Source: Komarekiella delphini-convector SJRDD-AB1
Lineage (GTDB): Bacteria; Cyanobacteriota; Cyanobacteriia; Cyanobacteriales; Nostocaceae
Direction of reading: 5' to 3'
Length of the DNA stretch: 36,577 bases
Assembly: GCF_014831675.1 (NCBI RefSeq)
Contig: NZ_VJXY01000060.1
Location: 1 to 36,577, forward strand
The notes beneath the pieces were generated by a model. The model ran no database searches and had not been told where the DNA came from. It saw only the letters and a program-made list of their open reading frames with translations. Each line of letters starts with the position of its first letter. The first letter of the stretch is position 1. The position numbers and the translations under genes are program-made. Positions 7,346 to 31,029 of the stretch are shown here, piece by piece.

Positions 7346-7531
7346 TAAAATCTCATCCCCTTTTAGTCTTTCGACTACACTCAGGGCTAACGGTGAGCGA
7401 AGCCGAACCGTTAGGGGTAAGATGAGCTTAATTAATCCCTAATTATGCAACTTATGGGCAGCAAATAGCTGTAATATATAAATAAATATGGAGTTGTTTA
7501 AGTATGTATATTGTTAACATCTGAGGTTATA

Positions 7532-12761: not shown

Positions 12762-12762
12762 A

Positions 12763-12924
12763 GTGACAACAGTTGAATTTTTAGCTTCACTCAAAAGTTT
12801 AAGCATCAAAATCTGGATTGAAAATGATCAACTACGCTATCGCGCTCCTAAAGGAGTAATGAAATCAGATCTCAAACAGGAATTGGTGGAGCGGAAAACA
12901 GAAATAGTTAGATTTCTCAAACAA
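12763..12924 (+). other. TubC-type (beta-hairpin class) N-terminal docking domain on the methyltransferase
   Basis: The 'WIENDQLRYRAPKG...L...L..RK.EI' signature is shared with the N-termini of NRPS2 and NRPS3. Confidence 0.65.
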
Positions 12925-14082
12925 GCAAAAGATGTGATGGGCGACAAACGTTTAGTAACTGATGTCGTTCCTCAAAGAAATTTACAGTCAATATCTCAGG
13001 AAGAATGCGAAAAGCCTAATCAAATTGAACTATGGCCATCATTAGCAGAATTCTTTGTGTATGACGAGTTTTTATACTACGTTCTCACCAACGATCGCCG
13101 CAGAAATCACAGCTACAAAGTGGCTATTAATCAGTTAGTCAAAGATAAAGTAGTTGTCGATATCGGAACAGGTAAAGATGCAATTTTAGCTAGATTTTGT
13201 GCTGAAGCTAATGCACGGAAAGTCTATGCAATTGAAATGAGTGAAAAATATTACAACTCAGCCAAAGCTTGCATCAACAAACTTGGTTTAGCAGACAAAA
13301 TCACCTTAATTTTAGGGGATGCAACCAAAGTTAATTTACCTGAGATGGCTGACGTTTGTGTTTCAGAAATAGTTGGCTCCATTGGAGGAGTTGAAGGCGC
13401 GGCATTAATTTTAAATAACGCCCGCAGATTTTTGAAAGAAGATGGAGTAATGATTCCGGCAAGAAGCATTACTAAAATTGCTGGTGTTTGTCTACCTGAT
13501 GAGTTTTTGCAAAATCCAGGGTTTACGGAAATCCCAGCTTATTATACTCGTAAAATATTTGAGCAAGTTGGATACCCCTTTGATTTAAGGTTATGTCTGA
13601 GACATTTTTCCAAGTCCAGCATTATCTCCACTAGCTCGATTTTTGAAGACCTGAATTTCACAGGTATGATCGAACCAGAATATAGTCACGAAGTCAACCT
13701 CAGCATTTTAAAAGATTCAAGATTAGATGGCTTTATAGTCTGGCTCAATCTACACACTATAGAAGGGGAAGTTATTGATGTACTAGAGCATGAATATTGC
13801 TGGCTACCTGTATATTTTCCAGTCTTCTCTCCGGGAATTCAAGTTTCTCAAGGAGATAAAATTGAAGCAATTTGCAGTGGCTCGCTGTGTGAAAACAATC
13901 TGAATCCAGACTATAAAATAGAAGGTTACGTGATTAAAGAAACAGGAGAAAAAATAGAATTTAAATACTATTCATATCATTATAAAAATGATTTTGAACA
14001 AACACCATTTTATAAAACAATTTTTTCTCAATATGTATTTGAATCTAATATAAACAATTCTATCAAAACAGCAATAACTTAG
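12763..14082 (+). CDS. free-standing PRMT-fold SAM methyltransferase with N-terminal NRPS docking domain
   Basis: - N-terminus: 'TTVEFLASLKSLSIKIWIENDQLRYRAPKGVMKSDLKQELVERKTEIVRFLKQ' (docking domain).
- Core: 'LTNDRRRNHSYKVAI...KDKVVVDIGTG', 'KVYAIE' and 'DVCVSEIVGSIGGVEGA' (E-x8-E, 13366-13395).
- C-terminus: barrel-like part with 'YCWLPVYFP'.
- This matches the type I protein-arginine-methyltransferase layout.
- GTG 12763 (GAGGGG about 10 nt upstream, 1 nt after the NRPS1 stop) is preferred over ATG 12724, which lies inside NRPS1. Confidence 0.8.
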   Translation: MTTVEFLASLKSLSIKIWIENDQLRYRAPKGVMKSDLKQELVERKTEIVRFLKQAKDVMGDKRLVTDVVPQRNLQSISQEECEKPNQIELWPSLAEFFVYDEFLYYVLTNDRRRNHSYKVAINQLVKDKVVVDIGTGKDAILARFCAEANARKVYAIEMSEKYYNSAKACINKLGLADKITLILGDATKVNLPEMADVCVSEIVGSIGGVEGAALILNNARRFLKEDGVMIPARSITKIAGVCLPDEFLQNPGFTEIPAYYTRKIFEQVGYPFDLRLCLRHFSKSSIISTSSIFEDLNFTGMIEPEYSHEVNLSILKDSRLDGFIVWLNLHTIEGEVIDVLEHEYCWLPVYFPVFSPGIQVSQGDKIEAICSGSLCENNLNPDYKIEGYVIKETGEKIEFKYYSYHYKNDFEQTPFYKTIFSQYVFESNINNSIKTAIT

Positions 14083-14259: not shown

Positions 14260-14442
14260 ATGAATAAAAATATTAATAAAATAACAGTATTTGAATTTTT
14301 ATCTTTACTAAACAGCTTAGATATAAAAGTTTGGATTGAAAACGACCAGCTGCGCTATCGCGCTCCCAAGGGAGTGATAACTTCAGCCCTCAAGCAGGAG
14401 TTGATAGAGCGAAAAAAAGAAATATTGGGTTGTCTTGAAGAA
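14260..14442 (+). other. TubC-type N-terminal docking domain of NRPS2
   Basis: It is near-identical in pattern to the methyltransferase N-terminus: 'KVWIENDQLRYRAPKGVITSALKQELIERKKEIL' versus 'KIWIENDQLRYRAPKGVMKSDLKQELVERKTEIV'. Confidence 0.65.
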
Positions 14443-17400
14443 GCAAGAACCGAAAACAAATTAGCTTTTGAACCTATTTTACCTGTTGACCGAGATTGCC
14501 ATTTACCTTTATCTTTTAGTCAACAAAGACTGTGGTTTCTCCATCAGTTAGATAAACAAAACTCTTTTTATAATGGCAATGTACAACTTCGGTTTATTGG
14601 TGCGCTAAACGTAACAGCATTAGAGCAAAGCATCAATGAAATTATCTGTCGCCACGAAGCTTTACGGACTGTTTTCTCAACAGTAGATGGATTGGCGGTG
14701 CAGAAGATTATCCCTACTTTAACTATCAACATCCCAGTATTGGATGTAGAAGGATTAGAAGAAGGTGAAATTCAACAACTAGTTACTAAAGAAATTCAGC
14801 AACCTTTTGATTTAAGTATCGCTCCTTTATTACGAGTTACTCTACTGCGCCAAGAAGTAGAATCTTACTTAATGGTCTTGACTATGCACCACATCATTAT
14901 TGATGCCTGGTCAATGGAAATATTCTTCAAAGAGCTAGAAGTCCTTTATGATGCTTTTACTAAAGGACAACCAAATCCTTTACCAGAGTTAACGATACAA
15001 TACGCTGATTTTGCCCTCTGGCAACGCCAATGTTTAACTAAAGAAGTTCAACAAAAGCAACTAGAGTACTGGAAACAACAGTTAGCTGATGCACCGCCCT
15101 TATTGGAGTTAACAACGGATTATCCGCGCCCCCCAGTTCAGACTTTTTCTGGTGCTACTAAAAGATTTCAACTCGAAAAGGATTTAACTTCTCAACTAGT
15201 AACCCTCAGCCAAAATTCAAGTGTCACTTTGTTTATGACTCTGCTGACAGCTTATACCGTTTTACTGTATCGTTACAGTGGTCAAGATGATATTTGTATA
15301 GGTTCGCCTTTCGCTAATCGCGATCGCCAAGAACTTGAATCACTCATCGGCTTTTTTGCCAATACTTTAGTTTTGCGTACCAACTTGGCAGGCAACCCCA
15401 GCTTTAACGAATTACTGAGTCGTGTTCGTGAAATGGCAATGGATGCCTATGCTCATCAAAATTTTCCCTTTGAAATGCTGGTTGAGGCATTGCAACCGCA
15501 AAGAGAACTCAGCCATACACCCCTATTCCAAGTAACGTTTGCCCTCCAGAATGCTTCCACATCTCCAGTAGAGTTGACTGGGTTAACTGTCACTTCATTG
15601 CCCACAGAAACTACAACTACCAAGTTTGATTTGACTTTATTAGTAGAAAATACTGCTGCTGGTTTGGTGAGTGTATGGGAGTATAACACTGATTTATTTA
15701 ATACCAGCACAATTGAGCGCATGGCTGAGCATTTTCAGACATTGCTTGAAGGTATTGTTGCTAACCCAGAGCAGCAAATTGCCCAATTGCCTTTACTGAC
15801 AAAAGTTGAGCAGCATCAATTATTAGTTGAATGGAACGATACTCAGACAGATTATCCCCAAGATAAGTGCATCCATCAATTGTTTGAGGAACAGGTTCAG
15901 CGCACCCCAGATGCAGTAGCAGTTGTGTTTGAAAATCAACAACTGACCTACCAGCAGTTGAACTGTCAGGCTAACTCTTTAGCGCACTACCTCAAGTCTT
16001 TAGGTGTGGGAGCAGATGTTTTGGTGGGTATTTGCGTGGAGCGTTCTTTAGAAATGATTGTGGGACTATTGGGAATTCTCAAAGCAGGTGGGGCTTATGT
16101 GCCACTTGACCCAGAGTATCCCCAAGAGCGCTTAAGTTTTATGCTGGCAGATACTCAGCTAAAAGTGCTGTTGACTCAAGAGAATTTAGTAGAGTCACTT
16201 CCTGAGCATCAGGCCCGTGTTGTCTGCTTAGAAACAGAATGGCAAAGCTTTAAGCAAGTAAATCAAGATAATCTCAACAGTACAGTCAGTTCCAAAAACC
16301 TAGCTTATGTGATTTACACCTCCGGTTCTACAGGTACACCCAAGGGAGTATTGGTCACACATCAAGCTGTAAATCGATTGGTCTTCAACACCAATTACAT
16401 ACAGTTAACACCCCATGACTGCGTTGCTCAAGCTGCAAATATTGCTTTTGATGCTGCAACTTTTGAAATTTGGGGAGCATTGCTGCACGGAGCAAAACTA
16501 GTTATTCTCAATCAATTTGTACTGCTTATCCCGAAAGAATTTGCTGTAAATATGCGCTCCCATGAGATCAGCGTCTTATTTTTAACCACAGCTTTATTCA
16601 ATCAATTAGCCAGTTTTGTACCACAAGCATTTAGTTCTCTACGATATCTACTATTTGGTGGTGAAGCCGTTGACCCTAGATGGGTGCAAGAAGTCCTAGA
16701 CAAAGGCGCACCACAGCAATTACTCCATGTCTATGGCCCAACAGAAAATACCACGTTTTCTACTTGGTATTTGGTAAAGAACTTACCAACAAAAACTGCA
16801 ACTATACCCATTGGTCGGGCAATTGCCAATACACAAATCTATTTATTAGACCAAAACTTACAACCTGTACCGATTGGTATACCAGGAGAATTGTACCTTG
16901 GTGGAGCAGGATTAGCACGCGGCTACCTCAACCGCCCAGAGTTGACACAAGAGAAATTCATCCCCAACCCCTTCGGTGGAAGCAGGGGAGAAGAACGCTT
17001 ATACAAAACAGGGGACTTAGCCCGTTATCTGCCAAATGGTAATATCGAATACCTGGGACGCATAGATAACCAGGTAAAAATTCGGGGCTTCCGCATTGAA
17101 TTAGGAGAAATTGAAGCAGTACTGAGCCAACATGATGATGTACAAGTATCTTGCGTCATCGCCAAGGAAGATAGTTCAGGTGGTAGGTGCTTAGTCGCTT
17201 ATGTAGTACCACATCAACAGCAGATACCCACAATTAGTGAACTGCGTCAATTCCTTTCTAATAAACTGCCTGGGTATATGATGCCATCTGCTTTTGTGAT
17301 ATTGGAGTCCTTACCTCTGACACCCAACTGCAAAGTAAACCGTCGCGCTCTACCTGACCCCGATTTAAATCAAGAACTATCAGATTATGTCATGCCAAAT

Positions 17401-17739
17401 ACAGAAGCAGAAAAAATTATTGCTGATATTTGGCAAAAAGCACTCTCATTAGAAAAAGTTGGAATTTATAATAATTTCTTTGATCTGGGAGGTCATTCTT
17501 TACTACTAGTAAAGATTAATCAGCAATTGCAAGAAACATTTGGGTTGGAAGTTTCAATAGTTGATATGTTTAACTACCCAACTATACATACTTTGAGCCA
17601 ATACTTAAGTAATAAGAATTATCAAGAAAATGCAATTAAGCAAAATAATTATCGAACTCAATCTCATAGTGAAATTAAATCTTTAAGAAACCAACAATTG
17701 CAATCCAGACAAGAATATCGTTCCCAGAGAAAAAGGTAA
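14260..17739 (+). CDS. NRPS module 2: dock-C-A-T; A-domain pocket reads DAFFLGVTFK (Ile/Val-like)
   Basis: - Dock: 'ITVFEFLSLLNSLDIKVWIENDQLRYRAPKG'.
- C domain: 'LPLSFSQQRLWF' and 'HHIIIDAWS' (14887-14907; Ala replaces the usual Gly).
- A domain: 'LAYVIYTSGSTGTPKGV', 'FDAATFE' (D235 at 16450), 'VLFLTT', 'LLFGGE', 'HVYGPTENTTFS' and 'NCKVNR' (K at 17332).
- T domain: 'NNFFDLGGHSLL'.
- The protein ends in a basic, Gln-rich tail. Confidence 0.95.
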   Translation: MNKNINKITVFEFLSLLNSLDIKVWIENDQLRYRAPKGVITSALKQELIERKKEILGCLEEARTENKLAFEPILPVDRDCHLPLSFSQQRLWFLHQLDKQNSFYNGNVQLRFIGALNVTALEQSINEIICRHEALRTVFSTVDGLAVQKIIPTLTINIPVLDVEGLEEGEIQQLVTKEIQQPFDLSIAPLLRVTLLRQEVESYLMVLTMHHIIIDAWSMEIFFKELEVLYDAFTKGQPNPLPELTIQYADFALWQRQCLTKEVQQKQLEYWKQQLADAPPLLELTTDYPRPPVQTFSGATKRFQLEKDLTSQLVTLSQNSSVTLFMTLLTAYTVLLYRYSGQDDICIGSPFANRDRQELESLIGFFANTLVLRTNLAGNPSFNELLSRVREMAMDAYAHQNFPFEMLVEALQPQRELSHTPLFQVTFALQNASTSPVELTGLTVTSLPTETTTTKFDLTLLVENTAAGLVSVWEYNTDLFNTSTIERMAEHFQTLLEGIVANPEQQIAQLPLLTKVEQHQLLVEWNDTQTDYPQDKCIHQLFEEQVQRTPDAVAVVFENQQLTYQQLNCQANSLAHYLKSLGVGADVLVGICVERSLEMIVGLLGILKAGGAYVPLDPEYPQERLSFMLADTQLKVLLTQENLVESLPEHQARVVCLETEWQSFKQVNQDNLNSTVSSKNLAYVIYTSGSTGTPKGVLVTHQAVNRLVFNTNYIQLTPHDCVAQAANIAFDAATFEIWGALLHGAKLVILNQFVLLIPKEFAVNMRSHEISVLFLTTALFNQLASFVPQAFSSLRYLLFGGEAVDPRWVQEVLDKGAPQQLLHVYGPTENTTFSTWYLVKNLPTKTATIPIGRAIANTQIYLLDQNLQPVPIGIPGELYLGGAGLARGYLNRPELTQEKFIPNPFGGSRGEERLYKTGDLARYLPNGNIEYLGRIDNQVKIRGFRIELGEIEAVLSQHDDVQVSCVIAKEDSSGGRCLVAYVVPHQQQIPTISELRQFLSNKLPGYMMPSAFVILESLPLTPNCKVNRRALPDPDLNQELSDYVMPNTEAEKIIADIWQKALSLEKVGIYNNFFDLGGHSLLLVKINQQLQETFGLEVSIVDMFNYPTIHTLSQYLSNKNYQENAIKQNNYRTQSHSEIKSLRNQQLQSRQEYRSQRKR

Positions 17740-17741: not shown

Positions 17742-20700
17742 ATGACAATGAATCCAGTACATAAAAATCATGAATATAATAATTCTGAAATAGCCATAAT
17801 TGCCGTTGCTGGTCGGTTCCCAGGAGCAAAAGACATCGAGTCTTTTTGGCAGAATATACATGATGGTGTAGAATCTATATCCAGGTTTACAGATGAAGAA
17901 TTATTAGAATCTGGTGTCTCTCCAGATTTACTGAGTAATTCTAATTATGTAAAAGCTAATCCTGTTGTATCAGACATTGAATTATTTGATGCAAATTTCT
18001 TTGCTTATAGTGCTAAAGAAGCTGAGTTAATAGATCCACAACAACGCCTATTTTTAGAATTGGCTTGGGAAGCAACAGAAAAGGCTGGTTATGATCCACA
18101 AACTTACAATGGTTTGATCGGGGTTTATGCTGGTGTGGGGATGAATCATTATTTGATAAAAAATATCTACTCTAATCATCAATTATTAGAAACAGTTGAC
18201 CCTCTTCAATTAATAGTTTCCAACGAGAAAGATTTTTTACCGACACGGGTTGCCTATAAACTCAACTTGACTGGGCCAGCAGTCAATGTGCAAACAGCTT
18301 GTTCTACTTCTTTAGTTGCAGTTCATCAAGCTTGTCAAAGTCTGTTCAATGGTGAATGTGACATGGCTTTAGCTGGTGGAGTTTCTCTAGGCATTCCCCA
18401 AAAAACAGGTTATTTGTATCAACCGGAAATGATCCTTTCTCCTGATGGACACTGCCGTAGTTTTGATGCAAAAGCCCAAGGAACTGTTGCTGGTAGCGGT
18501 GCTGGGATTGTGGTATTGAAAAGATTAAAGGATGCGATCGCAGATCGTGACCACATCCATGCAATCATTAAAGGTTCAGCCATTAATAACGATGGGGCAA
18601 TGAAAGTCGGTTACACTGCTCCTAGTGTCAGTGGTCAAGCCGCAGTCATTGGCGAGGCTCAAGCTATAGCTGGTGTAGATGCCGAAACAATTTCCTACAT
18701 CGAAGCACACGGTACAGCTACACCTTTAGGAGATCCCATTGAAATTGCCGCTTTAACTCAAGCTTTTAGGCAAACCACAGATAAAAAAGGTTTCTGTGCT
18801 ATTGGTTCGCTAAAAAGTAACTTAGGACATTTGGATACAGCAGCAGGTGTTGCAGGTTTGATAAAGACGGTATTAGCATTGCAAAATCAAATGCTGCCCC
18901 CTAGTTTGCACTACCAGACACCTAATCCCAAAATTGATTTTGCTAACAGTCCTTTTTATGTCAATACAACCCTAACTGAATGGAAAACAAATAACACCCC
19001 TCGCCGTGCTGGGGTTAGTTCCTTTGGTATGGGAGGGACTAATGCTCATGTAATTTTAGAAGAAGTAGTACCAGTCAACAGTCAACAGTCAACAGTAAAC
19101 AGTAAACAGTCAACAGTAAACAGTAAACAGTCAACAGTTAACAGTAAACAGTCAACAGTTAACAGTAAATATTTTCTGTTGTGTTTATCGGCTAAAACTG
19201 CGAATGCCCTTGAGCAGGCAACAACTAATTTAATTACACATTTAAAAGAGCATCCAGAACTGAACTTAGGCGATGTGGCTTATACGCTTAATAGTGGTCG
19301 TCGGGGTTTTAATTACCGACGAATGTTAATTTGTCAAGACTTAGAAGATGCGGTTGAAGCTCTCAGCAGTTTAGCAGTCCAACAAGTATTTACTAACTAT
19401 ACAGAGATTACTGAACGACCTGTTGTCTTTATGTTTCCCGGTCAAGGTTCTCAGTACGTCAACATGGCGCGGGAAATTTATCAAACCCAGACAGTATTTC
19501 AAGAACAAGTTGATTATTGCTCAGAAATTCTTAAACCTTTACTTGGGGAGGATTTGCGCCATATTCTCTATCCTAGCGAGTCAAAGATTGATGAAGCATC
19601 GCAGCAACTTCAACAAACCGCACTTGCCCAAAGCGCTATTTTTGTCATTGAATACGCCCTAACTCAATTATGGCAGTCATGGGGAGTGGAGCCACAAGCT
19701 GCGATCGGTCATAGTATTGGCGAATATGTAGCAGCAACTCTAGCTGGAGTTTTTTCTCTAGAAGATGCTTTATCTCTGGTAGCAGCACGCGGACAGTTGA
19801 TGCAGCAACTTCCCACTGGCGCAATGCTTTCAGTTCCCTTACCCGCAGACAAATTAAAATTCTTACTGGGGCAAGAACTTTCTATCGCCGCGATTAATCA
19901 ACCTTCGCAGTGTGTAATTTCTGGTTCAACAGCCGCCGTTGATGCACTACAAAATCAACTTGCTGCTCAAGGAATTGAGTGTCGCCGTCTGCATACATCC
20001 CATGCTTTCCATTCGCACATGATGGAACCAATCTTAGAGGCATTTAGACAGCGAGTTAGAAAAGTTACTTTAAATCCCCCAAAACTACCTTATATCTCCA
20101 ACCTAACTGGTACTTGGATTACAGTCAGCCAAGCCACAAATCCTGACTATTACGCTCAACATCTGCGTTCTACAGTACTGTTTGCCTCTGGTGTAGAGAA
20201 ACTATTGGCAACACCGGAGCAAGTCTTATTAGAAGTAGGGCCAGGACATACACTAATTACATTAGTCAAAAGACATCCAGACAAAACAGCCACACAAAGA
20301 GTCTTGAATTCAGTACGTCATCCTCAAGAAAAGCAATCCGATAATCATGTTTTATTAACCGCATTAGGTCAACTCTGGTTAGCTGGGGTTAAGGTAGATT
20401 GGTTTGGATTTTATAGTCAGGATGAGTATTATCGTCTTCCCTTAGCAACTTATCCCTTTGAGCGCCAACGTTATTGGATTGAACCACCAAAAAAACATAA
20501 CGATGAGCCTCTCAAAACTCTATCTTCACCAAAGTTAGATAATTTTCAGCCAGAAAATATATCTGCGCTCTACTCTAGACCTAATTTGCCAAATTCTTAT
20601 GTAGCTCCCCGCAATGAACTTGAAGAAAAAATTGCCAATATCTGGCAAGAATTATTAGGAATTCAACTCGTGGGAATCCATGACAACTTTTTTGAATTGG

Positions 20701-20858
20701 GAGGAGATTCACTAATAGGTGTTCAATTTATAACCCGATTACGAAATACTTTTTCTATTCAATTATCTGTAGCAAGTTTGTTTGAGTCTCCCACAATAGC
20801 TGACATATCACTAAAGCTAGAGCAACAAGAAATTGATAGAGAAGAAATCGCAATATGA
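17742..20858 (+). CDS. type I PKS module: KS-AT(malonyl)-carrier, no KR/DH/ER/MT
   Basis: - KS: 'VQTACSTSL' (Cys at 18300), 'EAHGTATPLGDP' and 'SNLGHLDTAAG'.
- AT: 'FPGQGSQ', 'GHSIGEYVAA' (Ser at 19713) and 'HAFHS' (20001-20012, malonyl-type).
- Carrier: 'APRNELEEKIANIWQELLGIQLVGIHDNFFELGGDSL' (Ser at 20709), which looks like an NRPS T domain.
- Only about 50 aa separate the post-AT linker from the carrier, leaving no room for a KR.
- The gene starts 3 nt after the NRPS2 stop. Confidence 0.95.
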   Translation: MTMNPVHKNHEYNNSEIAIIAVAGRFPGAKDIESFWQNIHDGVESISRFTDEELLESGVSPDLLSNSNYVKANPVVSDIELFDANFFAYSAKEAELIDPQQRLFLELAWEATEKAGYDPQTYNGLIGVYAGVGMNHYLIKNIYSNHQLLETVDPLQLIVSNEKDFLPTRVAYKLNLTGPAVNVQTACSTSLVAVHQACQSLFNGECDMALAGGVSLGIPQKTGYLYQPEMILSPDGHCRSFDAKAQGTVAGSGAGIVVLKRLKDAIADRDHIHAIIKGSAINNDGAMKVGYTAPSVSGQAAVIGEAQAIAGVDAETISYIEAHGTATPLGDPIEIAALTQAFRQTTDKKGFCAIGSLKSNLGHLDTAAGVAGLIKTVLALQNQMLPPSLHYQTPNPKIDFANSPFYVNTTLTEWKTNNTPRRAGVSSFGMGGTNAHVILEEVVPVNSQQSTVNSKQSTVNSKQSTVNSKQSTVNSKYFLLCLSAKTANALEQATTNLITHLKEHPELNLGDVAYTLNSGRRGFNYRRMLICQDLEDAVEALSSLAVQQVFTNYTEITERPVVFMFPGQGSQYVNMAREIYQTQTVFQEQVDYCSEILKPLLGEDLRHILYPSESKIDEASQQLQQTALAQSAIFVIEYALTQLWQSWGVEPQAAIGHSIGEYVAATLAGVFSLEDALSLVAARGQLMQQLPTGAMLSVPLPADKLKFLLGQELSIAAINQPSQCVISGSTAAVDALQNQLAAQGIECRRLHTSHAFHSHMMEPILEAFRQRVRKVTLNPPKLPYISNLTGTWITVSQATNPDYYAQHLRSTVLFASGVEKLLATPEQVLLEVGPGHTLITLVKRHPDKTATQRVLNSVRHPQEKQSDNHVLLTALGQLWLAGVKVDWFGFYSQDEYYRLPLATYPFERQRYWIEPPKKHNDEPLKTLSSPKLDNFQPENISALYSRPNLPNSYVAPRNELEEKIANIWQELLGIQLVGIHDNFFELGGDSLIGVQFITRLRNTFSIQLSVASLFESPTIADISLKLEQQEIDREEIAI
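19072..19169 (+). repeat. STRR-like heptamer array (14 tandem units cagtcaa/cagtaaa/cagttaa) inside the PKS coding frame
   Basis: Counted directly from the sequence. It translates in frame as 'VNSQQSTVNSKQSTVNSKQSTVNSKQSTVNSK', between the end of the KS ('NAHVILEE') and the start of the KS-AT linker ('LLCLSAKT'). Confidence 0.9.
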
Positions 20859-20956: not shown

Positions 20957-21133
20957 ATGGAGGTAATTTTTGTGAATATCAAGCAATTAGTATCTGAACT
21001 TTCTCAGCAAGGTGTGAAGTTGCGAGTTGAAGGTGAGCAGTTGCGTGTTAATGCTCCAAAAGGAGTATTGACAGCAGAAACTCGTGATTTACTAGCTAAG
21101 AATAAAGCAGAACTTATCTTGTTGCTTGAGCAG
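20957..21133 (+). other. TubC-type N-terminal docking domain of NRPS3 (divergent variant)
   Basis: 'GVKLRVEGEQLRVNAPKGVLTAETRDLLAKNKAELILLLEQ' has the same architecture as the other two docks but a different sequence. The upstream PKS ends in 'LEQQEIDREEIAI'. Confidence 0.6.
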
Positions 21134-24100
21134 AAAAATGCAATTACCACCGATACTAATTTACCTTTAATAAAAGGCGATCGCACTCAAAACTTACCTC
21201 TATCTTTTGCCCAAGAACAAATCTGGCTCTTGAGTCAGTTAGAACCAGATAACCCCTTTTACAACGAACTAGTAGCTCTGCGACTTCAAGGTCACTTAAA
21301 CATCACAGCACTGGAGCAAAGCCTCAACAAAATTATCGCTCGCCACGAAGCTTTACGTACCAATTTCCGCACCATCAACGAGCAACCAGTCCAGGTAATT
21401 GCTGAAACCTTAACCTTAAATGTACCAGTAATAGACTTAACAGAATTACCTGAAAGAGAAATCACTCTTGGGCAATTAGCTACAGCAAAAGCTACTCGAC
21501 CATTTAACCTTGCTAATTCTCCTTTAATCCAAGCTTGTGTAGTTAAACTCACAGAGGTAGAACACGTCTTCCTACTGACGATACACCACATTGTTTTTGA
21601 TGGTTGGTCAACAGGTGTATTGATGCGGGAGTTAGCCAGCATTTACTCGGCTCTGTGCCATAATTCTTCCCCACAGCTACCTGAGCTACCAATTCAGTAT
21701 GCCGACTTTGCGATTTGGCAACGGCAATTGTGGAAAACAGGGGTAATTCAAAAACAGCTTAATTACTGGAAGCAACAACTCAAAAATGCTCCTACCTTAT
21801 TAGAATTACCCACAGACCGTCCCAGACCAGCCATTCAAACTTTCCGGGGGGCGCGTCAATATATAGAACTGCCAATAGAACTAAGTGAAGCACTTACCAA
21901 TTTTAGTAAGCAAGAGAGAGCCTCCCTGTTCATGACGCTGTTCACAGCTTATGTTACCTTGCTTTATCGCTATACAGGCTCCGATGATATTGTAGTGGGT
22001 ATGCCCATTGCTAACCGCGATCGCTTAGAGATAGAAGGGTTAATTGGCTTTTTTGTCAACACTTTAGTCCTACGCACAGATTTGTCAGGCAAACCCAGTT
22101 TTCAGCAGTTGCTAGGTCGAGTACGGCAAGTGACACTGGAAGCTTACGCTCATCCAGACCTGCCTTTTGAAGAGTTGGTCAAAGCATTGCAGCCACAACG
22201 CGACCTCAGCCATACGCCACTATTTCAGGTGTTGTTTGCCTTTCAGAATGTACCTGCGTCTGGAGTAGAGATGACTGGTTTAACTGTCAGTCCATTTGCA
22301 GCAGAAAGCGCAACGGCAAAGTTTGATTTAACATTATCAATGCAGAACACTGCCACTGGACTAGTCGGTATGTGGGAGTACAATACTGACTTGTTTGATG
22401 CAGGCACTATCGAGCGGATGGCAGGGCATTTTGTGACGTTGCTTGAAGCCATTATTGCTAACCCACAGCAGCAAATCTCACAATTGCCCCTGCTGACAGA
22501 GGCAAAACAACAAAAGTTACTCGTTGAATGGAACAATACTCAAGTTGAATACCCCCGTGATAAGTGTATCCATCAGTTGTTTGAGGAGCAGGTAGAGCGT
22601 ACACCCGATGCAGTAGCGGTTGTATTTGGCGATCGCCAACTAACCTACCATGAATTGAACTGCCGTGCTAATCAGTTGGCGCACTACTTAAGAACTTTGG
22701 GTGTAAAACCAGATACGCTGGTAGGCATTTGCGTCGAGCGTTCTTTAGAAATGCTCGTCGGGCTATTGGGAATTCTTAAAGCGGGTGGTGCTTATGTGCC
22801 ACTTGACCCAGAGTATCCAACTGAACGTTTGCACTTTATGCTTGAAGATGCTCAAGTTTCAGTGTTACTCACCCAACAGCATTTAGTTGAGAAACTTCCT
22901 GAGCATCAAGCGAAACTTATATATTTGGATACTCAATGGGAGGGGATAGGTCAGTCAAGTCAGGATAATCTTATCAGTGACGTACAAGCAACTAATCTGG
23001 CTTATGTGATTTATACCTCTGGTTCTACAGGAACACCAAAAGGAGTGATGATTGAGCATCAGTCTTTGGTCAATTTTACAAAAGCTGAGGTAACACAATG
23101 GGGCATTAACCAAAAAGATTGCATCCTCCAGTTTAGTTCTTTTAGTTTTGATGTCTTTGCTAAAGATATTTATCCCTGCTTAAGTGTTGGCGGCACACTG
23201 GTACTGCGAACAGAACAAATGTTAAATTCCTGGTTCGCTTTGATTGCAGGAATTGAGCGTTGGCAAATAACCGTGCTAAATTTCCCAGCAGCCTACTGGC
23301 ATGAGTTGGTAACAGAACTGGCTCGAACAAACAAGAGTTTGTCGCCGAATCTACGACTAATAACTATTGGTGGAGAAAGGTTATTACCAGAAAAAATTAA
23401 ACTGTGGTATGAACATATACAAAAAAACTCAGATTTATCTAAGTTAGCAACTTCTCCCCAGCTAATTAACGGTTACGGGCCTACGGAAACAACAATTCAA
23501 GCTAGTGGCTGTCTCTTATCTGCCCAGATGTGTGATGCCTTGTACTCAATTCCCATTGGTCGTCCCATTCCTAACACACAAATCTACATCCTCGACTCAA
23601 ACTTACAAACAGTTCCCGTAGGTGTACCAGGAGAATTGCACATTGGTGGTGCTGGATTAGCACGAGGATACCTCAACCGCCCTGAATTAACACAAGAGAA
23701 ATTCATTCCTAACCCATTTGAGGAGGTACAAGGGAGTAGATTATATAAAACCGGGGATTTAGCACGCTACTTGCCCGATGGCAACATTGAATATATAGGA
23801 CGTATAGATAATCAAGTTAAGATTCGCGGCTTCCGCATTGAGTTGGGTGAAATCGAAACGGTACTAAGTCAACATGGAGATGTACAAGCATCCTGTGTCA
23901 TTGCCCGCGAAGATATCCCAGGTGATAAACGCTTAGTCGCTTACGTGATGCTGCATCAGCACTACACATCCAGAATCAATGAACTACGCCATTTCCTAAA
24001 GGCAAAACTTCCAGAGTACATGGTTCCAAATGCAATAGTCATTCTGGAGTATCTGCCACTCACTCCCAACGGCAAAGTAGACCGCCGCGCCTTACCCGCA

Positions 24101-27100
24101 CCAGATTTACACAGCGAACCCAAAGGTAAATTTGTTGCCCCACGCACACCTGTTGAAGAAATGCTGACACAAATTTGGGCGCAAGTGCTGAAAGTAGAGC
24201 AAGTGGGCATTCATGATAACTTCTTTGAACTCGGAGGACATTCGCTACTAGCAACACAACTGCTCTCACGTATTGGCAACATTTTCCAAGTGGAACTACC
24301 TTTGCGTAGCCTGTTTGCCGCAGCGACAGTTGCAGAATTAGGGCATTTGATTGAGCAGTTGCAGCAACAGAAATTAGAATTAACTTCCCCACCCATCTTA
24401 CCAAGACCAAAGGATGCAGAATTACCACTGTCTTATGCTCAACAGCGTTTGTGGTTTTTAGACCAGTTACAGCCGGACAGTGGCTCCTACAATATGCCTC
24501 TAACTTTGCATCTAGTAGGAACTCTCAATCAACCTGCCTTAAAACAAAGCTTACAAGAAATCATTCGTCGCCACGAAGCTTTACGCACCAATTTTATTAC
24601 GGTTGATGGCAAACCTTCTCAAGTTATCCAAACACAAACGAATTGGACACTATCAATTATTAACTGCGAAGATCTGCCAAAAAGCAAAAAAGAAATTGCT
24701 ATACAGCAATTAGCACAAAAACAAGCTATTCAATCTTTTAATTTGGCAGATGAACCATTAGTCAAGGCAACGTTAGTTGTGCTGTCCGAGACAGAACACG
24801 CTTTGTTGGTGTTTATACATCACATTGTCTCGGATGGCTGGTCAATGGGTGTGTTTATTCAAGAGTTAGCAGCCCTGTACAATGCTTATTCTCAAGGTCA
24901 GCCGTCACCCTTAGCGCCACTGCCGATTCAGTACGCAGATTTCGCAATTTGGCAGCGAAAGTGGTTACAAGGTGATGTACTGCAAAGCCAACTCTCGTAC
25001 TGGCAACAACAACTAGCCAACGCACCAGCTTTGTCATCCCTACCGACAGACCGACCTAGAGGGGCTGTGCAAACTTACCACGGGGCATATCAAGAGTTTA
25101 TACTTTCAAAGGAGCTAAGTGTTGCGCTCAAACAATTGAGTCAAAAAGAAGGTGTTACCTTATTTATGACGCTGTTAGCAGCATTTCAAATATTGCTATG
25201 GCGCTATAGTGGGCAGGATGATATCTGCATAGGAACACCGATCGCTAATCGTAACCGTACAGAAATAGAACCATTAATTGGCTTTTTTGTCAATACTCTT
25301 GTATTGCGTACCCGCTTAGATGGTAATCCTAGTTTTAAGCAGCTATTATCACGGGTGCGAGAAGTCGCTCTAGGAGCCTATGCTCATCAAGATTTGCCTT
25401 TTGAAATGTTGGTGGAAGCATTGCAACCAGAACGAAATCTCAGCCATAACCCAATTTTTCAAGTATGGTTTAATTTAATGAACTTGGCAGACACTCAACC
25501 GAAACTTTTTGAGTTGTCTGTAGAACCGATATCGATACCAGAGGCAGCTTCCAAGTTTGATTTAAGCTTGTATGTTACAGAACACAAACAAGAAATAACT
25601 CTGCAAGTAGTATATAATTCTGACCTATTTACTTCAGAAAGAATGGTGGAAATGCTGCAACAATTCCATCATTTACTCAATCAAATTGTTGTTGTTCCTG
25701 ATAGTGCAATTGCCTTTTATTCTCTTGTGACACCACAAGCTAGACTTTTGCTGCCAGATCCCACAACAGCCATACCACAACCAGAATACGAATTAGTCAC
25801 AACAACTTTTACTTCTTGGGTCAATAGCAGCCCAGAACTCTCAGCAGTTTGTCAAGGCTCTCGCACTTGGAACTATGGCGAATTAGGCAAAAGCTCTCAA
25901 GCTTTAGCTAGGGTGATGCTGAGTCACGGAATTGAACGAGGAGATGTCGTCGCCTTGTATGGTACATCCAGTTTTGGATTAATTGCTAGTGTGATCGCTA
26001 TTCTTTTGAGTGGCGGAGTGTTAATGACACTCGATCCCCAACTTCCTGATGAGCGTCAACGATTGATACTCAAAGAAGCTCAAGCTAAATACATATTAGA
26101 CCTTGATGGTCAGCACCCAGAAGCCCAGGAGCTATGGCAGTCTTTAACTGTCATACGTATAAATAAAGATACAGCAGAACCGATAAATCATCGCCAGCAA
26201 AGCAGTCATCCAATACCCTTGCCGGAAATATCCGGGGATGAGCCAGCCTATATTTTCTTTACTTCTGGTAGTACTGGCGTTCCGAAAGGAGTATTAGGGT
26301 GTCACAAAGGGATAGCACACTTTATCAGCTGGCAGCGTCAGACCTTTGGAATTAGTCAGCAAGACCGCATTGCCCAATTAACCAAACTTTCCTTTGATGC
26401 CATCTTAAGAGATATCTTCTTACCTTTAACCAGTGGTGCAACCTTATGTCTGCCAGCAGCAGGGGATAACTTAGAACCGACGAAAATTTTGCGTTACTTG
26501 GAACGAGAGCAGATTTCTGTTGTACACACAGTTCCTTCCTTGGCGCAATCATGGTTAGCTAATGTACCCAAAGAAGTCTCTGTGCATAACTTACGTTGGT
26601 TATTCTTTTCTGGAGAACCTCTCAAGGAGACACTCATACGGCGATGGCGAGATGCTTTTCCCCAAGCAGGAGAAATCATTAATCTTTATGGGGCGACAGA
26701 GACAACCTTAGTCAAGTGTTATTACCAAGTACCTAGCAAACCGACACCAGGGGTACAGCCAGTAGGACGACCAATGCCTGAAACTCAAGCACTAGTTTTG
26801 GGTGTAAATCATCAACTGTGCGGTATTGGGGAACCGGGCGAGATTATTTTACGCACACCATTCCGCAGTTTGGGCTACATTAATGCCCCAGAGGAAATGC
26901 GCTCTCGGTTTGTCAAAAACCATTTTCGTAATGATGACCAGGATTTGTTGTACTATACAGGCGATCGCGGCCGCTATCTTCCAGATGGCTCCTTAGAAAT
27001 TCTCGGTCGCCAAGATCATCAAGTCAAGATTCGCGGCATACGCATTGAGCTTGGAGAAATTGAAACAGTATTAGCACAACACCCATCTGTGCATCAGACT

Positions 27101-28447
27101 GTAGTGACTGCCCGTGAAGATGCTTTCGGCGAGCAAAGCTTAGTAGCTTACATCATCCCGCAGGAATCAGCACCCACAATTAGCAAGATCCGAGGCTTCC
27201 TCTCCACTAAGCTGCCACAGTACATGATTCCTTCTGGTTTTGTATTTTTAGATAGCTTGCCACTAACAGCCAACGGTAAGATAGACCGTCGCGCTTTGCC
27301 TGCACCTTCTCACATTAATAACTCAAGCACATTTGTCGAACCCCGTAACCAATTAGAGCTACAACTGGTGCAAATTTGGTCAAAGATTCTTCAACTTGAC
27401 AAGGTGGGAGTACAAGATAACTTTTTTGACCTTGGCGGTCATTCTCTTTTAGCTCCCTACTTAATGGCTCAAATTAAACAGCAGTTTGGTAAAAATATCC
27501 CTTTAGCAAGCCTGTTCCAAAATCCAACTATTGAACAGTTGGCGACAATTGTGCAAATAGACTCGGATAGCTCAAATTCGTCTTTGATACCAATTCAGCC
27601 AAACGGTTCAAACTCACCTTTCTTCTGTGTGCCTGGCGCTGGTGGCGAACCTTTCTACTTATATCACCTAGGGCGTTATTTAGGAGCAGACCAACCGTTA
27701 TACAGTTTTCAACCAAACAATATAAATGAACAATTAAAGCCAGCCACCCGAATTAAAGATATGGCTAGTAATTATATTCAAGCGATGCAAGCTGTTCAGC
27801 CGCAAGGGCCATACTTTTTGGGAGGGCATTCTTTTGGAGGCAAAGTAGCTTTTGAAATGGCCCAGCAGTTGCTTCATCAAGGACATCAGGTGGCGCTACT
27901 TATGATTATTGATACTACTGCACCAACCTCTAATGAAAGGCAAACACGTCTTGATTGTCTTGATTGGGATCATGCTAAATGGCTAATTGACTTGATCAAA
28001 ACAGTAGAAGTTGCGCTAGTAACGAACATGAATATTTCTTACGATACCCTGCGATCGCTGCCTGTGGAGGAGCAACTAAAATACGTTTTACAACATTTGA
28101 AAATGGTTAATATGCTTCCTCCTAACGCTGAAACTACACAGTTGAAAAATATCATCCAAACTTATAAAGCTAATTCTCTATGTCTAATTGATTATGTACC
28201 AAAACATATCTATCCTGGTCGAATTACGCTTCTACGCGCCAGCGAACCTCTTGGGGAAAATTATGCTAGAAAGTTACCTTCTGAAATGTTACAGGATTCA
28301 GCCTTGAGTTGGAACAAGTTTTCTTGCAAACCAGTGAATGTCGATTTTCTTCCAGGCAATCATGTGACGATGATGGCTGAACCCCATGTCCAGGTATTAG
28401 CCGAACGGTTGAAAGCTTACATCGAGCAAGCACAAGCAAACATCTAA
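20957..28447 (+). CDS. bimodular NRPS: dock-C-A-T-C-A-T-TE (modules 3 and 4, chain release)
   Basis: - Dock: 'IKQLVSELSQQGVKLRVEGEQLRVNAPKG'.
- C3: 'HHIVFDGWS'.
- A3: 'LAYVIYTSGSTGTPKGV', 'FDVFAKD' (D235 at 23150), 'VLNFPA', 'ITIGGE', 'NGYGPTETTIQA' and 'NGKVDR' (K at 24074).
- T3: 'FFELGGHSLL'.
- C4: 'LPLSYAQQRLWF' and 'HHIVSDGWS'.
- A4: 'AYIFFTSGSTGVPKGV', 'FDAILRD' (D235 at 26396), 'VVHTVP', 'FFSGE', 'NLYGATETTLVK' and 'NGKIDR' (K at 27278).
- T4: 'FFDLGGHSLL'.
- TE: 'FFCVPGAGG' and 'GGHSFGG'.
- No E domains are present. Confidence 0.95.
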   Translation: MEVIFVNIKQLVSELSQQGVKLRVEGEQLRVNAPKGVLTAETRDLLAKNKAELILLLEQKNAITTDTNLPLIKGDRTQNLPLSFAQEQIWLLSQLEPDNPFYNELVALRLQGHLNITALEQSLNKIIARHEALRTNFRTINEQPVQVIAETLTLNVPVIDLTELPEREITLGQLATAKATRPFNLANSPLIQACVVKLTEVEHVFLLTIHHIVFDGWSTGVLMRELASIYSALCHNSSPQLPELPIQYADFAIWQRQLWKTGVIQKQLNYWKQQLKNAPTLLELPTDRPRPAIQTFRGARQYIELPIELSEALTNFSKQERASLFMTLFTAYVTLLYRYTGSDDIVVGMPIANRDRLEIEGLIGFFVNTLVLRTDLSGKPSFQQLLGRVRQVTLEAYAHPDLPFEELVKALQPQRDLSHTPLFQVLFAFQNVPASGVEMTGLTVSPFAAESATAKFDLTLSMQNTATGLVGMWEYNTDLFDAGTIERMAGHFVTLLEAIIANPQQQISQLPLLTEAKQQKLLVEWNNTQVEYPRDKCIHQLFEEQVERTPDAVAVVFGDRQLTYHELNCRANQLAHYLRTLGVKPDTLVGICVERSLEMLVGLLGILKAGGAYVPLDPEYPTERLHFMLEDAQVSVLLTQQHLVEKLPEHQAKLIYLDTQWEGIGQSSQDNLISDVQATNLAYVIYTSGSTGTPKGVMIEHQSLVNFTKAEVTQWGINQKDCILQFSSFSFDVFAKDIYPCLSVGGTLVLRTEQMLNSWFALIAGIERWQITVLNFPAAYWHELVTELARTNKSLSPNLRLITIGGERLLPEKIKLWYEHIQKNSDLSKLATSPQLINGYGPTETTIQASGCLLSAQMCDALYSIPIGRPIPNTQIYILDSNLQTVPVGVPGELHIGGAGLARGYLNRPELTQEKFIPNPFEEVQGSRLYKTGDLARYLPDGNIEYIGRIDNQVKIRGFRIELGEIETVLSQHGDVQASCVIAREDIPGDKRLVAYVMLHQHYTSRINELRHFLKAKLPEYMVPNAIVILEYLPLTPNGKVDRRALPAPDLHSEPKGKFVAPRTPVEEMLTQIWAQVLKVEQVGIHDNFFELGGHSLLATQLLSRIGNIFQVELPLRSLFAAATVAELGHLIEQLQQQKLELTSPPILPRPKDAELPLSYAQQRLWFLDQLQPDSGSYNMPLTLHLVGTLNQPALKQSLQEIIRRHEALRTNFITVDGKPSQVIQTQTNWTLSIINCEDLPKSKKEIAIQQLAQKQAIQSFNLADEPLVKATLVVLSETEHALLVFIHHIVSDGWSMGVFIQELAALYNAYSQGQPSPLAPLPIQYADFAIWQRKWLQGDVLQSQLSYWQQQLANAPALSSLPTDRPRGAVQTYHGAYQEFILSKELSVALKQLSQKEGVTLFMTLLAAFQILLWRYSGQDDICIGTPIANRNRTEIEPLIGFFVNTLVLRTRLDGNPSFKQLLSRVREVALGAYAHQDLPFEMLVEALQPERNLSHNPIFQVWFNLMNLADTQPKLFELSVEPISIPEAASKFDLSLYVTEHKQEITLQVVYNSDLFTSERMVEMLQQFHHLLNQIVVVPDSAIAFYSLVTPQARLLLPDPTTAIPQPEYELVTTTFTSWVNSSPELSAVCQGSRTWNYGELGKSSQALARVMLSHGIERGDVVALYGTSSFGLIASVIAILLSGGVLMTLDPQLPDERQRLILKEAQAKYILDLDGQHPEAQELWQSLTVIRINKDTAEPINHRQQSSHPIPLPEISGDEPAYIFFTSGSTGVPKGVLGCHKGIAHFISWQRQTFGISQQDRIAQLTKLSFDAILRDIFLPLTSGATLCLPAAGDNLEPTKILRYLEREQISVVHTVPSLAQSWLANVPKEVSVHNLRWLFFSGEPLKETLIRRWRDAFPQAGEIINLYGATETTLVKCYYQVPSKPTPGVQPVGRPMPETQALVLGVNHQLCGIGEPGEIILRTPFRSLGYINAPEEMRSRFVKNHFRNDDQDLLYYTGDRGRYLPDGSLEILGRQDHQVKIRGIRIELGEIETVLAQHPSVHQTVVTAREDAFGEQSLVAYIIPQESAPTISKIRGFLSTKLPQYMIPSGFVFLDSLPLTANGKIDRRALPAPSHINNSSTFVEPRNQLELQLVQIWSKILQLDKVGVQDNFFDLGGHSLLAPYLMAQIKQQFGKNIPLASLFQNPTIEQLATIVQIDSDSSNSSLIPIQPNGSNSPFFCVPGAGGEPFYLYHLGRYLGADQPLYSFQPNNINEQLKPATRIKDMASNYIQAMQAVQPQGPYFLGGHSFGGKVAFEMAQQLLHQGHQVALLMIIDTTAPTSNERQTRLDCLDWDHAKWLIDLIKTVEVALVTNMNISYDTLRSLPVEEQLKYVLQHLKMVNMLPPNAETTQLKNIIQTYKANSLCLIDYVPKHIYPGRITLLRASEPLGENYARKLPSEMLQDSALSWNKFSCKPVNVDFLPGNHVTMMAEPHVQVLAERLKAYIEQAQANI
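27569..28444 (+). other. type I thioesterase domain
   Basis: 'FFCVPGAGGEPFYLY', the nucleophile elbow 'GGHSFGG', 'MIIDT' (Asp) and 'PGNHVTMM' (His) are all present. Confidence 0.85.
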
Positions 28448-28578
28448 GTGCAAAGATGGTTCTTTCCCTTATACTCCTACACCCTTATACCCAAAAGCCA
28501 ACTATATTGGGGGGTTTGCGCTTTACAAGCCTGCTATTTGCAGCGAAACCATAGCAATCACTGATTGGAAAAATATTT

Positions 28579-29376
28579 ATGAATAAAAAACTACCAATGC
28601 TTGGAGTTTTAGGCGGTATGGGGCCTGTAGTTACTGCCGAATTTCTTAAATCTATTTATGAATATAACCAGTTTATTGACAAGGAACAAGAAGCACCTAA
28701 CGTCATTGTGTTCTCACTTCCTTCTGCACCCGATCGCACGAGTTCTATAAATAATGGGAATGAAAGAGAATTTATTGATTTTATTCAACTGCATCTCGAA
28801 AATCTCAATAAATTGGTTGACCGTATAGTGATTAGCTGTTGTACATCTCATTATGCTCTGACTCATATCCCAGAACATCTTACTAATAAAGTAATTTCCT
28901 TAATTCAAATCGCAGATCAACAACTTCAAGAACATGATGAACCTGCCCTTTTGCTGGCAAGCACAGGCACTTATCATAAAAAATTGTTTCACGAAGGTTG
29001 TAATGGTGCAAATCGCATTATTTCTCTATCTGAAAAAGACCAATACTCAATTCATGAGATGATTTATCGAGTACTTAAACCAGGACAAGATCCACTCACA
29101 ATTCTTGGAAATATTCAAGCATTGTTACATAAATATAATACTCGTTCTTATATTTCGGGTTGTACAGAATTTCATTTATTCACAAAATCTCTCAAGCTCA
29201 ATAAAATTGATTCTATAAAAGCGATCGATCCTTTAACTACTATTGCCCAAAACTTTTATCAGCTATTAGAGCCAGCTACATCTAATTCTATTTTGTTCAA
29301 AGATAAAATAAAATTACCTAACCAATTTAATTCACCAAATATTAATTATAAAACGGCTTTATGTGAAACAATTTAA
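28579..29376 (+). CDS. Asp/Glu-racemase-family enzyme (McyF-like aspartate racemase)
   Basis: 'MLGVLGGMGPVVTAEF' is the N-terminal signature. Two catalytic-Cys boxes, 'ISCCTSHY' and 'ISGCTEFH', correspond to the CNTAH and GCTE boxes of the PLP-independent Asp/Glu racemase family. Confidence 0.8.
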   Translation: MNKKLPMLGVLGGMGPVVTAEFLKSIYEYNQFIDKEQEAPNVIVFSLPSAPDRTSSINNGNEREFIDFIQLHLENLNKLVDRIVISCCTSHYALTHIPEHLTNKVISLIQIADQQLQEHDEPALLLASTGTYHKKLFHEGCNGANRIISLSEKDQYSIHEMIYRVLKPGQDPLTILGNIQALLHKYNTRSYISGCTEFHLFTKSLKLNKIDSIKAIDPLTTIAQNFYQLLEPATSNSILFKDKIKLPNQFNSPNINYKTALCETI

Positions 29377-30966: not shown

Positions 30967-31029
30967 GGTAGTTCGCCTTTCTATTTATAATTAGTGGGAC
31001 TTTAAAACTTTCTGGCATGAAAAATCTCT

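Follow-up and report, generated by a model that had tools for sequence, protein, structure and literature searches.

An orphan NRPS-PKS cluster of Komarekiella delphini-convector with a McyF-type racemase, and a pocket code linked to racemase genes in a widespread family of adenylation domains

D-configured residues that are introduced without an epimerisation (E) domain escape the standard annotation of nonribosomal peptide synthetases (NRPSs). To our knowledge, microcystin and nodularin are the only well-known cyanobacterial case of such a residue. The contig NZ_VJXY01000060.1 of Komarekiella delphini-convector SJRDD-AB1 (36,577 nucleotides, analysed at its full length and hereafter called the window) carries an orphan Nostocales cluster of NRPS and polyketide synthase (PKS) genes in which the terminal NRPS gene is followed by a gene similar to mcyF, the racemase gene of the microcystin cluster. 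A preliminary description of the window had suggested that the last two modules, 3 and 4, incorporate one or two acidic residues, at least one of them supplied as the free D-isomer and possibly linked through the side-chain carboxyl. This raises the question which residue of the line is served by the racemase, and how it would enter the peptide.

In this study, we show that the racemase gene is orthologous to mcyF and that, in the family to which the last adenylation (A) domain of the line (A4) belongs, a particular pocket code goes together with adjacent racemase genes. These comparisons make D-aspartate, or a near analogue of it, the probable last residue. The principle is known, in that a racemase makes a D-amino acid in free form and an A domain accepting this isomer loads it; the assembly line is new, and the racemase-linked signature of the A-domain family appears to be so.

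The racemase gene and the pocket of the last adenylation domain

The gene following the terminal NRPS gene had been described as a McyF-like racemase with two cysteines and independent of pyridoxal phosphate (PLP), and this holds. The protein matches PF01177 (49.4 bits, cut-off 31), is 78% identical over 231 residues to the crystallised McyF (PDB 5WXX, E = 3e-115) and keeps both cysteines, Cys87 and Cys195, in the motifs CCTSH and GCTEFH. These are the residues that were changed to Ser in the McyF structures 5XNK and 5WXY. On the model TIGR00035 it scores 82.5 bits, slightly under the cut-off of 93.1; the bona fide mcyF neighbour in locus L004 reaches 77.3. In a neighbour-joining tree, calculated without support values, the racemases of this cluster type group inside the Nostocales mcyF/ndaG clade, the comparison genes being those that come after mcyE/ndaF-like genes in other Nostocales. 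DNA identity to these mcyF genes is 82-86%. It begins 4-33 bp upstream of the ATG; in five of six loci it breaks off 49-106 bp short of the stop codon, so that the two groups do not share the 3' end of the gene, and the flanks are unrelated. With a ratio of nonsynonymous to synonymous substitutions (dN/dS) of 0.12-0.16, against both the racemases of its own cluster type and the mcyF group, the gene is by this measure under purifying selection. It occupies the same position in four orthologous clusters of different genera; in a fifth, in a metagenome-assembled genome (MAG, locus L013), it is disrupted. Judged by these comparisons, the racemase is a McyF orthologue that was recruited as a functional, gene-sized cassette from a microcystin/nodularin-type cluster. 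With it, a racemase gene of the microcystin type has come into new use in an unrelated assembly line. No McyF-like gene was found in any cyanobacterial plasmid of the plasmid collection. Reviews describe McyF as a characterised Asp racemase, and by likeness to McyF the window enzyme probably has the same activity.

Pocket codes were read at positions 235/236/239/278/299/301/322/330/331/517 against GrsA, using residues 234-526 of PDB 1AMU, with which our reference segment is identical. The four A domains of the line give DFWNIGMVHK (A1), DAFFLGVTFK (A2), DVKNTGGIQK (A3) and DARHFSLLVK (A4), the last two reproducing exactly the codes proposed before. The alignment to GrsA, said to be free of gaps, is not so for A3, which has insertions between 278 and 299 and before 322; anchoring on the motifs yields the same code nevertheless. 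Position 278 of A4 depends on the alignment: one pairwise MAFFT run places a gap and reads Ser, while the gap-free register (ISVVH-TVPS) gives His278, in agreement with the HMMER alignments to 8XJZ, FscH and Txo1/2 (vsvvHfvps). In the orthologues from Nostoc sp. MG11, Scytonema NIES-4073 and two Nostoc MAGs, the code of A3 and that of A4 are both conserved. DARHVGIFVK, given in the preliminary description, is presumably the code of McyB module 2. A search of the literature for ten pocket codes as strings, including the codes of both A3 and A4, gave no match, and since textbook codes were unmatched as well it is uninformative.

A4 had been placed in a different sequence lineage from the other three domains. 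It is indeed only 37% identical to A1-A3, which share 55-59% among themselves. Its own family is large and extends over many phyla at 50-66% identity, with the code pattern D[V/A/P]RHF[A/S]L[L/M][A/V]K, in which R239, H278 and F299 hardly vary, as read from 120 database proteins and from 80 metagenome loci that were obtained by scanning contigs of metagenomes with an alignment of the pocket segment that is specific to the family. In 8 of the 80 loci a TIGR00035-type racemase gene lies on the same strand near the NRPS gene of the family member; it overlaps that gene or lies within 190 bp of it in five, and is 0.9-1.7 kb away in the other three. The link appeared only once the family was split by pocket code. 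Racemase genes accompany 7 of 12 domains with Ala at position 236 and 1 of 6 with Pro, as compared to none of 60 with Val and neither of the two with Met (Fisher p = 5e-7). An eighth locus of the Ala236 type, L045, shares its 49-kb contig with the L043 locus and the racemase of that locus. All racemase-linked Ala236 domains have Val or Ile at position 331, where the majority of the family has Ala. The pairing of DARHF..[V/I]K with an adjacent TIGR00035 racemase was found in the window and in loci L022, L043, L052, L058, L060, L074, L084 and L089; in the neighbourhoods L017, L018, L024 and L026 of A4-family proteins no racemase was present.

In the family tree, likewise without support values, the Ala236 domains are spread out, each of them nearest to a Val236 or a Pro236 domain. 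The nearest relative of A4 is the L027 domain, at 81% identity, which has the code DVRHFALLAK, belongs to a different NRPS and has no racemase. A second domain, P0086, has DARHFSLMIK and a racemase; its identity to P0079 and P0099 is 65-69%, and these two, with DPRHFALMAK, have a JmjC/Cupin_8 gene in the racemase slot of an otherwise similar cluster. One stand-alone protein of the family, an A domain with a carrier (T) domain, shares overlapping stop and start codons with an Asp/Glu-family racemase gene, followed by a line of ketosynthase (KS), acyltransferase (AT), acyl carrier protein (ACP), condensation (C), A, T and thioesterase (TE) domains. The partner racemases fall into at least three sub-lineages, the McyF type described here and two others that are only 24-40% identical to the reference sequences. 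This distribution suggests several independent origins of the DARHF pocket, and a racemase-linked pocket signature of this widespread A-domain family appears not to have been described before. It is conceivable, if short of probable, that DARHF..[V/I]K is a convergent and unrecognised signature for the direct loading of a D-Asp-like residue, derived from a DVRHFALLAK- or DPRHF-type ancestor by changes at positions 236, 301 and 331, with a racemase recruited each time. If true, the sequence would allow D-Asp or D-cysteate to be predicted for many orphan clusters of the NRPS and NRPS-PKS kind across phyla, and a switch of the A-domain pocket from L to D by three residues would be defined. The rule that a DARHF..[V/I]K pocket goes with an adjacent Asp-type racemase is testable and covers a large A-domain family of many phyla. 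The pair of A4 and L027 (DARHFSLLVK with racemase, DVRHFALLAK without) represents a natural experiment on the choice of enantiomer and substrate, and its comparison is useful for the prediction and engineering of A domains.

Two recurrent arrangements were seen beside the family members. Loci L028-L038, counted among the closest relatives of A4, encode a bimodular NRPS of about 2000 amino acids with the domain order A-T-C-A-T-TE and without a racemase; the codes, read in L028, L032, L035, L037 and L038, are DPW(A/G)TGCIDK and DVRHFAL(L/M)AK. Loci L020, L022, L025 and L026 represent a widespread cluster type of uncultured bacteria, one of them named Bryobacteraceae. Here an A-T protein of the R239 family is followed by a JmjC/Cupin_8 protein or an Asp-type racemase (in L026 by a second A-T) and then by KS-AT-ACP-C(-A-T-TE).

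The assembly line and its other domains

The plus-strand genes between 6701 and 29376 form a single operon-like cluster, which we regard as one orphan Nostocales hybrid NRPS-PKS cluster. Domains were called by Pfam profile scan; the carrier protein of the starter unit was called from its open reading frame (ORF) and the motif GLDS instead. The features are as follows, all on the plus strand.

6701..7240, plus strand: chorismate pyruvate-lyase-like gene (PF01947, Rv2949c-like, E = 2.8e-18; weak NCBIfam match to cyanobacterial chorismate lyase)
7511..9073, plus strand: stand-alone acyl/aryl-AMP ligase (PF00501 and PF13193)
9070..9324, plus strand: carrier protein of 84 amino acids for the starter acid (ORF with GLDS motif, overlapping the ligase stop codon)
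9402..12761, plus strand: NRPS1, C-A-T (Pfam), A1 code DFWNIGMVHK
12724..14082, plus strand: stand-alone PRMT-like methyltransferase with N-terminal docking domain of the TubC_N/AerJ type (PF18563 and PRMT5/Methyltransf matches)
14260..17739, plus strand: NRPS2, docking domain-C-A-T (Pfam), A2 code DAFFLGVTFK
17742..20858, plus strand: PKS module KS-AT-ACP without ketoreductase (AT motifs GHSIG...HAFH; KS motifs TACST, EAHGTAT and NLGH)
20957..28447, plus strand: terminal NRPS, docking domain-C3-A3-T3-C4-A4-T4-TE (Pfam)
22580..24094, plus strand: A3 domain, code DVKNTGGIQK (D235 codon at 23150, K239 codon at 23162-23164)
24419..25738, plus strand: C4 condensation domain, LCL-type by scores against solved structures
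25808..27292, plus strand: A4 domain, code DARHFSLLVK (R239 codon at 26408-26410, H278 at 26525)
27617..28411, plus strand: thioesterase domain (Pfam, GHSFGG)
28579..29376, plus strand: McyF-orthologous, PLP-independent Asp-type racemase of 265 amino acids (Cys87 codon at 28837, Cys195 codon at 29161)

The lyase-like gene probably supplies the starter acid, 4-hydroxybenzoate, a role deduced from its family. The gene logic of the starter resembles that of mycobacterial Rv2949c/FadD22. The region 6001-10000, with the three genes for lyase, ligase and carrier protein (6701-9324), has a GC content of 33% as compared to 38-44% in the remaining cluster, and these genes may be a separately acquired starter cassette. 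The code of A1 we take to be Thr-type and that of A2 to be Ile/Val-type; by its motifs the AT of the PKS module is malonyl-type. Nostoc sp. MG11, Scytonema sp. NIES-4073 and three Nostoc MAGs have counterparts of the PKS, the terminal NRPS and the racemase at 82-92% identity, the terminal NRPS alone being 84-88% identical to its orthologues in L001, L002, L003 and L015. A literature search found no described cluster in which a chorismate lyase, NRPSs and McyF are combined.

No module of the line contains an E domain, as had been stated before: Pfam finds one C-type domain per module. A six-frame scan of the whole window revealed exactly four HHxxxD(G/A) motifs and neither EGHGRE nor TVGWFT, which are motifs of E domains. 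The carrier domains read GGHSL in NRPS2 and the terminal NRPS and GGNSL in NRPS1. C4 scores about 289 bits to TycC6, as compared to 139 to the C domain of McyB module 1 (McyB1, PDB 8HLK), 134 to SrfA-C and 105 to TycB1; we take TycC6 to be of the LCL (L-donor) type and SrfA-C and TycB1 to be D-donor C domains. The C domain of McyB1 comes after the E domain of McyA and is for that reason taken as a D-donor type (PMC2174460). C2, used as control, has the same score profile as C4, both scoring high to TycC6 and to FscG-type C domains, and C1-C4 share 50-57% identity with each other. By these scores C4 is LCL-type, and a likeness to D-donor (DCL) domains was not found. An LCL-type C4, together with a product of L-residues only, had been named in the preliminary description as a finding that would speak against a D-residue. 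C4 is of this type, but the argument is not valid: the C domain of McyC groups with L-donor domains despite its iso-linked D-methylaspartate (MeAsp) donor (PMC2174460), and the type of C4 is not decisive because a D-residue at position 4 would meet C4 only as acceptor.

Module 3 is of another kind. At position 239, the 120 closest database relatives of A3 have Glu in 75 cases, Trp in 23, Lys in two and Arg in none. Most close relatives carry codes of the DAEDIGTVVK kind, and such codes with Glu239 belong to basic amino acids. Among solved structures, A3 comes nearest to ApnA A1 of anabaenopeptin synthetase (PDB 4D4G, 624 bits), with which it shares an unusual insertion before the A5 motif. The pocket of ApnA A1 reads DVESIGVIAK as compared to DVKNTGGIQK, and Lys239 of A3 aligns with the Glu at its base; ApnA A1 is presumably bispecific for Arg and Tyr. 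Lys239 thereby presents itself as a Glu-to-Lys charge reversal within a lineage for basic amino acids, which is only suggestive of an acidic substrate. Taken with V322G and I299T, the reversal would accommodate an acidic side chain of some length, that of Glu for example, and a neutral polar one also fits. With the Glu-activating code DAKDLGVVDK, A3 has only D235, K239, G301 and K517 in common, and it was not found to be a domain of that type. Of the one or two acidic residues that had been proposed, that of module 4 is well supported by racemase orthology and the link of pocket and racemase, and that of module 3 is only suggested, its K239 lying in a basic-type lineage. One of the two other relatives with Lys239, P0137 of Scytonema sp. 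NUACC26 (L019; code DVKNFGAVV-), has an inserted methyltransferase. Its cluster also contains a chorismate-lyase-like gene, an AMP ligase, a carrier protein, radical SAM and AspH-like genes, sulfotransferases and an HMGL-like gene; no racemase is among the genes listed within 10 kb.

The methyltransferase (12724-14082) has its best PDB matches in PRMT6, CARM1 and PRMT1, and its docking domain in AerJ (PDB 8AQQ). AerJ, presumably a halogenase, has the same N-terminal docking fold; the window enzyme is PRMT-like. In the stretch SEIVGSIGGVE it keeps both Glu residues of the double-E loop, which in PRMTs binds guanidinium. By its docking domain the enzyme probably docks on the assembly line.

Proposed route and its alternatives

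From the domain order and the pocket codes we infer the likely substrates, stereochemistry, regiochemistry and product. An aryl acid derived by chorismate lyase, probably 4-hydroxybenzoate, would be adenylated, loaded on the small carrier protein and condensed with Thr; the docked PRMT-like methyltransferase would act somewhere on the line. Addition of Ile/Val and one unreduced malonyl extension would follow, then two more residues and release by the TE. For module 3 the most likely substrate is an L-residue whose side chain is long and polar and which is activated at its alpha-carboxyl; since Lys239 stands where related domains have the Arg-binding Glu, our first guess is a Glu-like residue. 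The racemase would make a free D-acidic amino acid, most likely D-Asp. A4 would pick this D-isomer directly, with Arg239 pairing with its second carboxylate, and C4 would couple it to the L-configured residue 3. An E domain would not be needed, since the free D-isomer would be selected by A4 itself, a domain possibly derived from a cyanobacterial DVRHFALLAK-type domain via V236A, A301S and A331V. The predicted product is an aryl-capped Thr-(Ile/Val-ketide)-X-D-Asp peptide. The earlier proposal that a free D-isomer is supplied for one module agrees with McyF orthology, purifying selection and the statistics that tie DARHF pockets to racemases, and the acidic, free-D-isomer reading is well supported for module 4 only. 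Taken as a whole, the assembly line with a racemase-fed A4 for D-Asp and an L-residue at module 3 seems to us somewhat more probable than its negation.

Microcystin synthesis by McyF and McyB module 2 (nodularin: NdaG) resembles the window in that a stand-alone gene for a two-cysteine racemase comes right after an NRPS gene, and in neither system is there an E domain for that residue. The logic would be common to both, and the A domain of McyB module 2, by its presumed code, likewise has Arg at 239 and His at 278. The window line differs by its aryl starter, Thr, Ile/Val and single ketide and by having no Adda genes. No homologue of mcyI turned up in the window, where no search aimed at mcyI was made, and for this reason plain Asp is likelier than MeAsp. 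The cluster was also considered as a microcystin/nodularin cluster and rejected as such, the gene before the racemase encoding C-A-T-C-A-T-TE and not McyE/NdaF; the mcyE-like loci (L004-L012 and L014) group by themselves. Ten mcyE/ndaF-like A domains beside mcyF homologues read DPR at positions 235/236/239, and His278 in 4 of the 10, being displaced by pairwise alignment elsewhere. With codes like DPRH(S/I)GVVGK, the A domain of McyE/NdaF shares R239 and H278 with A4 and has mcyF directly downstream; unlike A4 it sits in a PKS-aminotransferase-NRPS hybrid protein. A4 was rejected as a McyE-type domain, being 31-32% identical and no nearer to this type than it is to A domains in general, and McyE-type domains scoring lower on the Lys2 model. 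The residue of McyE is named 'D-iso-glutamic acid' (PMC2174460), and it is from this name that we take its side-chain linkage.

Such a linkage would be a refinement of the preferred explanation and not its replacement: the D-acid of position 4 would be held on T4 through its side-chain carboxyl, and the TE would form an iso-linked macrolactone. R239 and H278 as in McyE-type domains are consistent with it, and so are the scores on the model TIGR03443 of Lys2, namely 294-331 bits for A4 and two relatives, 242-249 for A1-A3 and 186-189 for McyE-type domains. Lys2, the alpha-aminoadipate reductase, activates the distal carboxyl of aminoadipate with the code DPRHFVMRA-, and the start D-x-R-H-F of this code is alike in A4. 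Against the refinement stand the retained D235, the lack of an acidic residue deep in the pocket for the alpha-ammonium group and a relation to Lys2 that is weak (34% identity to a provisional Lys2 sequence). A4 was not found to be a Lys2-type domain, its 294 bits comparing with a cut-off of 1030 and T-TE following in place of a reductase domain. We consider the side-chain linkage rather unlikely, and hydrolysis by the TE would erase its trace for a C-terminal residue. The basic residue at 239 could also mean something other than a carboxylate, A3 then loading a neutral polar long-chain residue (Gln, citrulline, acylated Orn or Lys) or a hydroxylated aromatic one and A4 a non-carboxylate anion such as cysteate, or still another substrate. 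The uniformly polar pocket of A3 (K, N, T, Q), for which no match is known, two partner racemases elsewhere that score as cysteate racemase, and a methyltransferase that looks guanidino-directed would be in line with this; the 78% identity of the window racemase to the Asp racemase McyF argues for Asp, as do the JmjC/Cupin_8 partners in sister clusters, which fit an Asp-type substrate. FIH-type enzymes hydroxylate Asp and Asn. Altogether this alternative appears unlikely to us.

Improbable is a racemase that serves module 3, with A3 loading D-Glu or D-Asp and A4 an L-residue. Lys239 is rare among the relatives of A3 (2 of 120) and was given in the preliminary description for a Glu code, and the nearest relatives of A4 do without a racemase. 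But C4 is LCL-type, the lineage of A3 is an ordinary one activating the alpha-carboxyl, which makes an iso-linked exception like that of McyC less likely, and the statistics tie the racemase to the pocket type of A4 and not to that of A3; moreover, the Lys239 domain P0137 is without a racemase among its listed neighbours. Finally, A4 might take L-Asp or L-Glu and the racemase be a passenger of recombination with mcy/nda genes that has no role in the pathway. The discrete cassette with its unrelated flanks and the short tandem repeats at the cluster edges would agree with a passenger; its conserved position in four orthologous clusters, the dN/dS of 0.12-0.16, the intact catalytic cysteines and the recurrence of the same pairing in unrelated phyla make this very improbable.

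Several observations weigh against the preferred explanation, by which A4 is fed with D-Asp by the racemase. TIGR00035 carries only the name 'amino acid racemase', and listed homologues act on Lys/Arg/Orn (RacX) or homoserine (YgeA), according to a review; since these homologues use other amino acids, family membership alone names no substrate for the racemase. A4 has only the 31-32% identity to McyE-type domains given above. In 72 of the 80 family loci there is no racemase nearby, the closest relatives of A4 included, and because most loci with R239 are without one, this residue alone is no proof of a D-substrate. The racemases of L060 (186-905) and L074 (1313-2032), beside DARHFVFLIK-type A domains, pass the cut-off of the NCBIfam cysteate racemase CuyB (226-236 bits, cut-off 190), so that 'Asp-like' could mean cysteate in some clusters, D-cysteate in those of the L060/L074 type. 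Not all loci are independent of each other: the pocket segments of L060 and L074 agree to 89%, and L043 and L045 lie on one contig. The neighbour-joining trees lack support values. None of the predicted residues has a guanidino group. A guanidino-type methyltransferase in a line of this kind means that the predicted list of residues is possibly wrong, that of A3 being the least certain.

Cluster borders and neighbouring genes

The racemase is the last gene in common with the four orthologous clusters, and DNA synteny with the orthologous loci stops within 5 bases of its stop codon. In Nostoc sp. MG11 (L001, 10804-12828) it is followed by an ABC transporter of the ABC_membrane_2 type with 674 amino acids, and in Scytonema NIES-4073 (L002, 11053-13086) an ORF of 677 amino acids has the same position; no trace of an MG11-type transporter gene was found within the window. 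In the disrupted locus L013 (Nostoc MAG JTS-RE202, ~8000-10940) the terminal NRPS is without the stretch for residues 1607-1878, which make up the first half of A4, and the reading frame of the racemase is broken at its start; either the copy is decaying or the assembly is at fault.

Short tandem repeats are present at both borders of the cluster. Upstream there is an array of the 9-mer CTTAACTGT at 6292-6451, and downstream the 7-mers AACAGTA and CTGATAA are repeated at 29721-29754 and 29793-29822; the repeats are possible recombination sites. Beyond them, the minus strand at 30148-36577 encodes an ectoine-hydroxylase-like PhyH dioxygenase, an AspH-like hydroxylase, a major facilitator superfamily (MFS) transporter and the end of another NRPS. 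These genes were considered as parts of the cluster that tailor Asp and were rejected, being missing from all orthologous loci and lying beyond the point where synteny ends. The minus-strand NRPS has the domain order C-A-T-TE and the code DAHTITQVLK and runs beyond the window.

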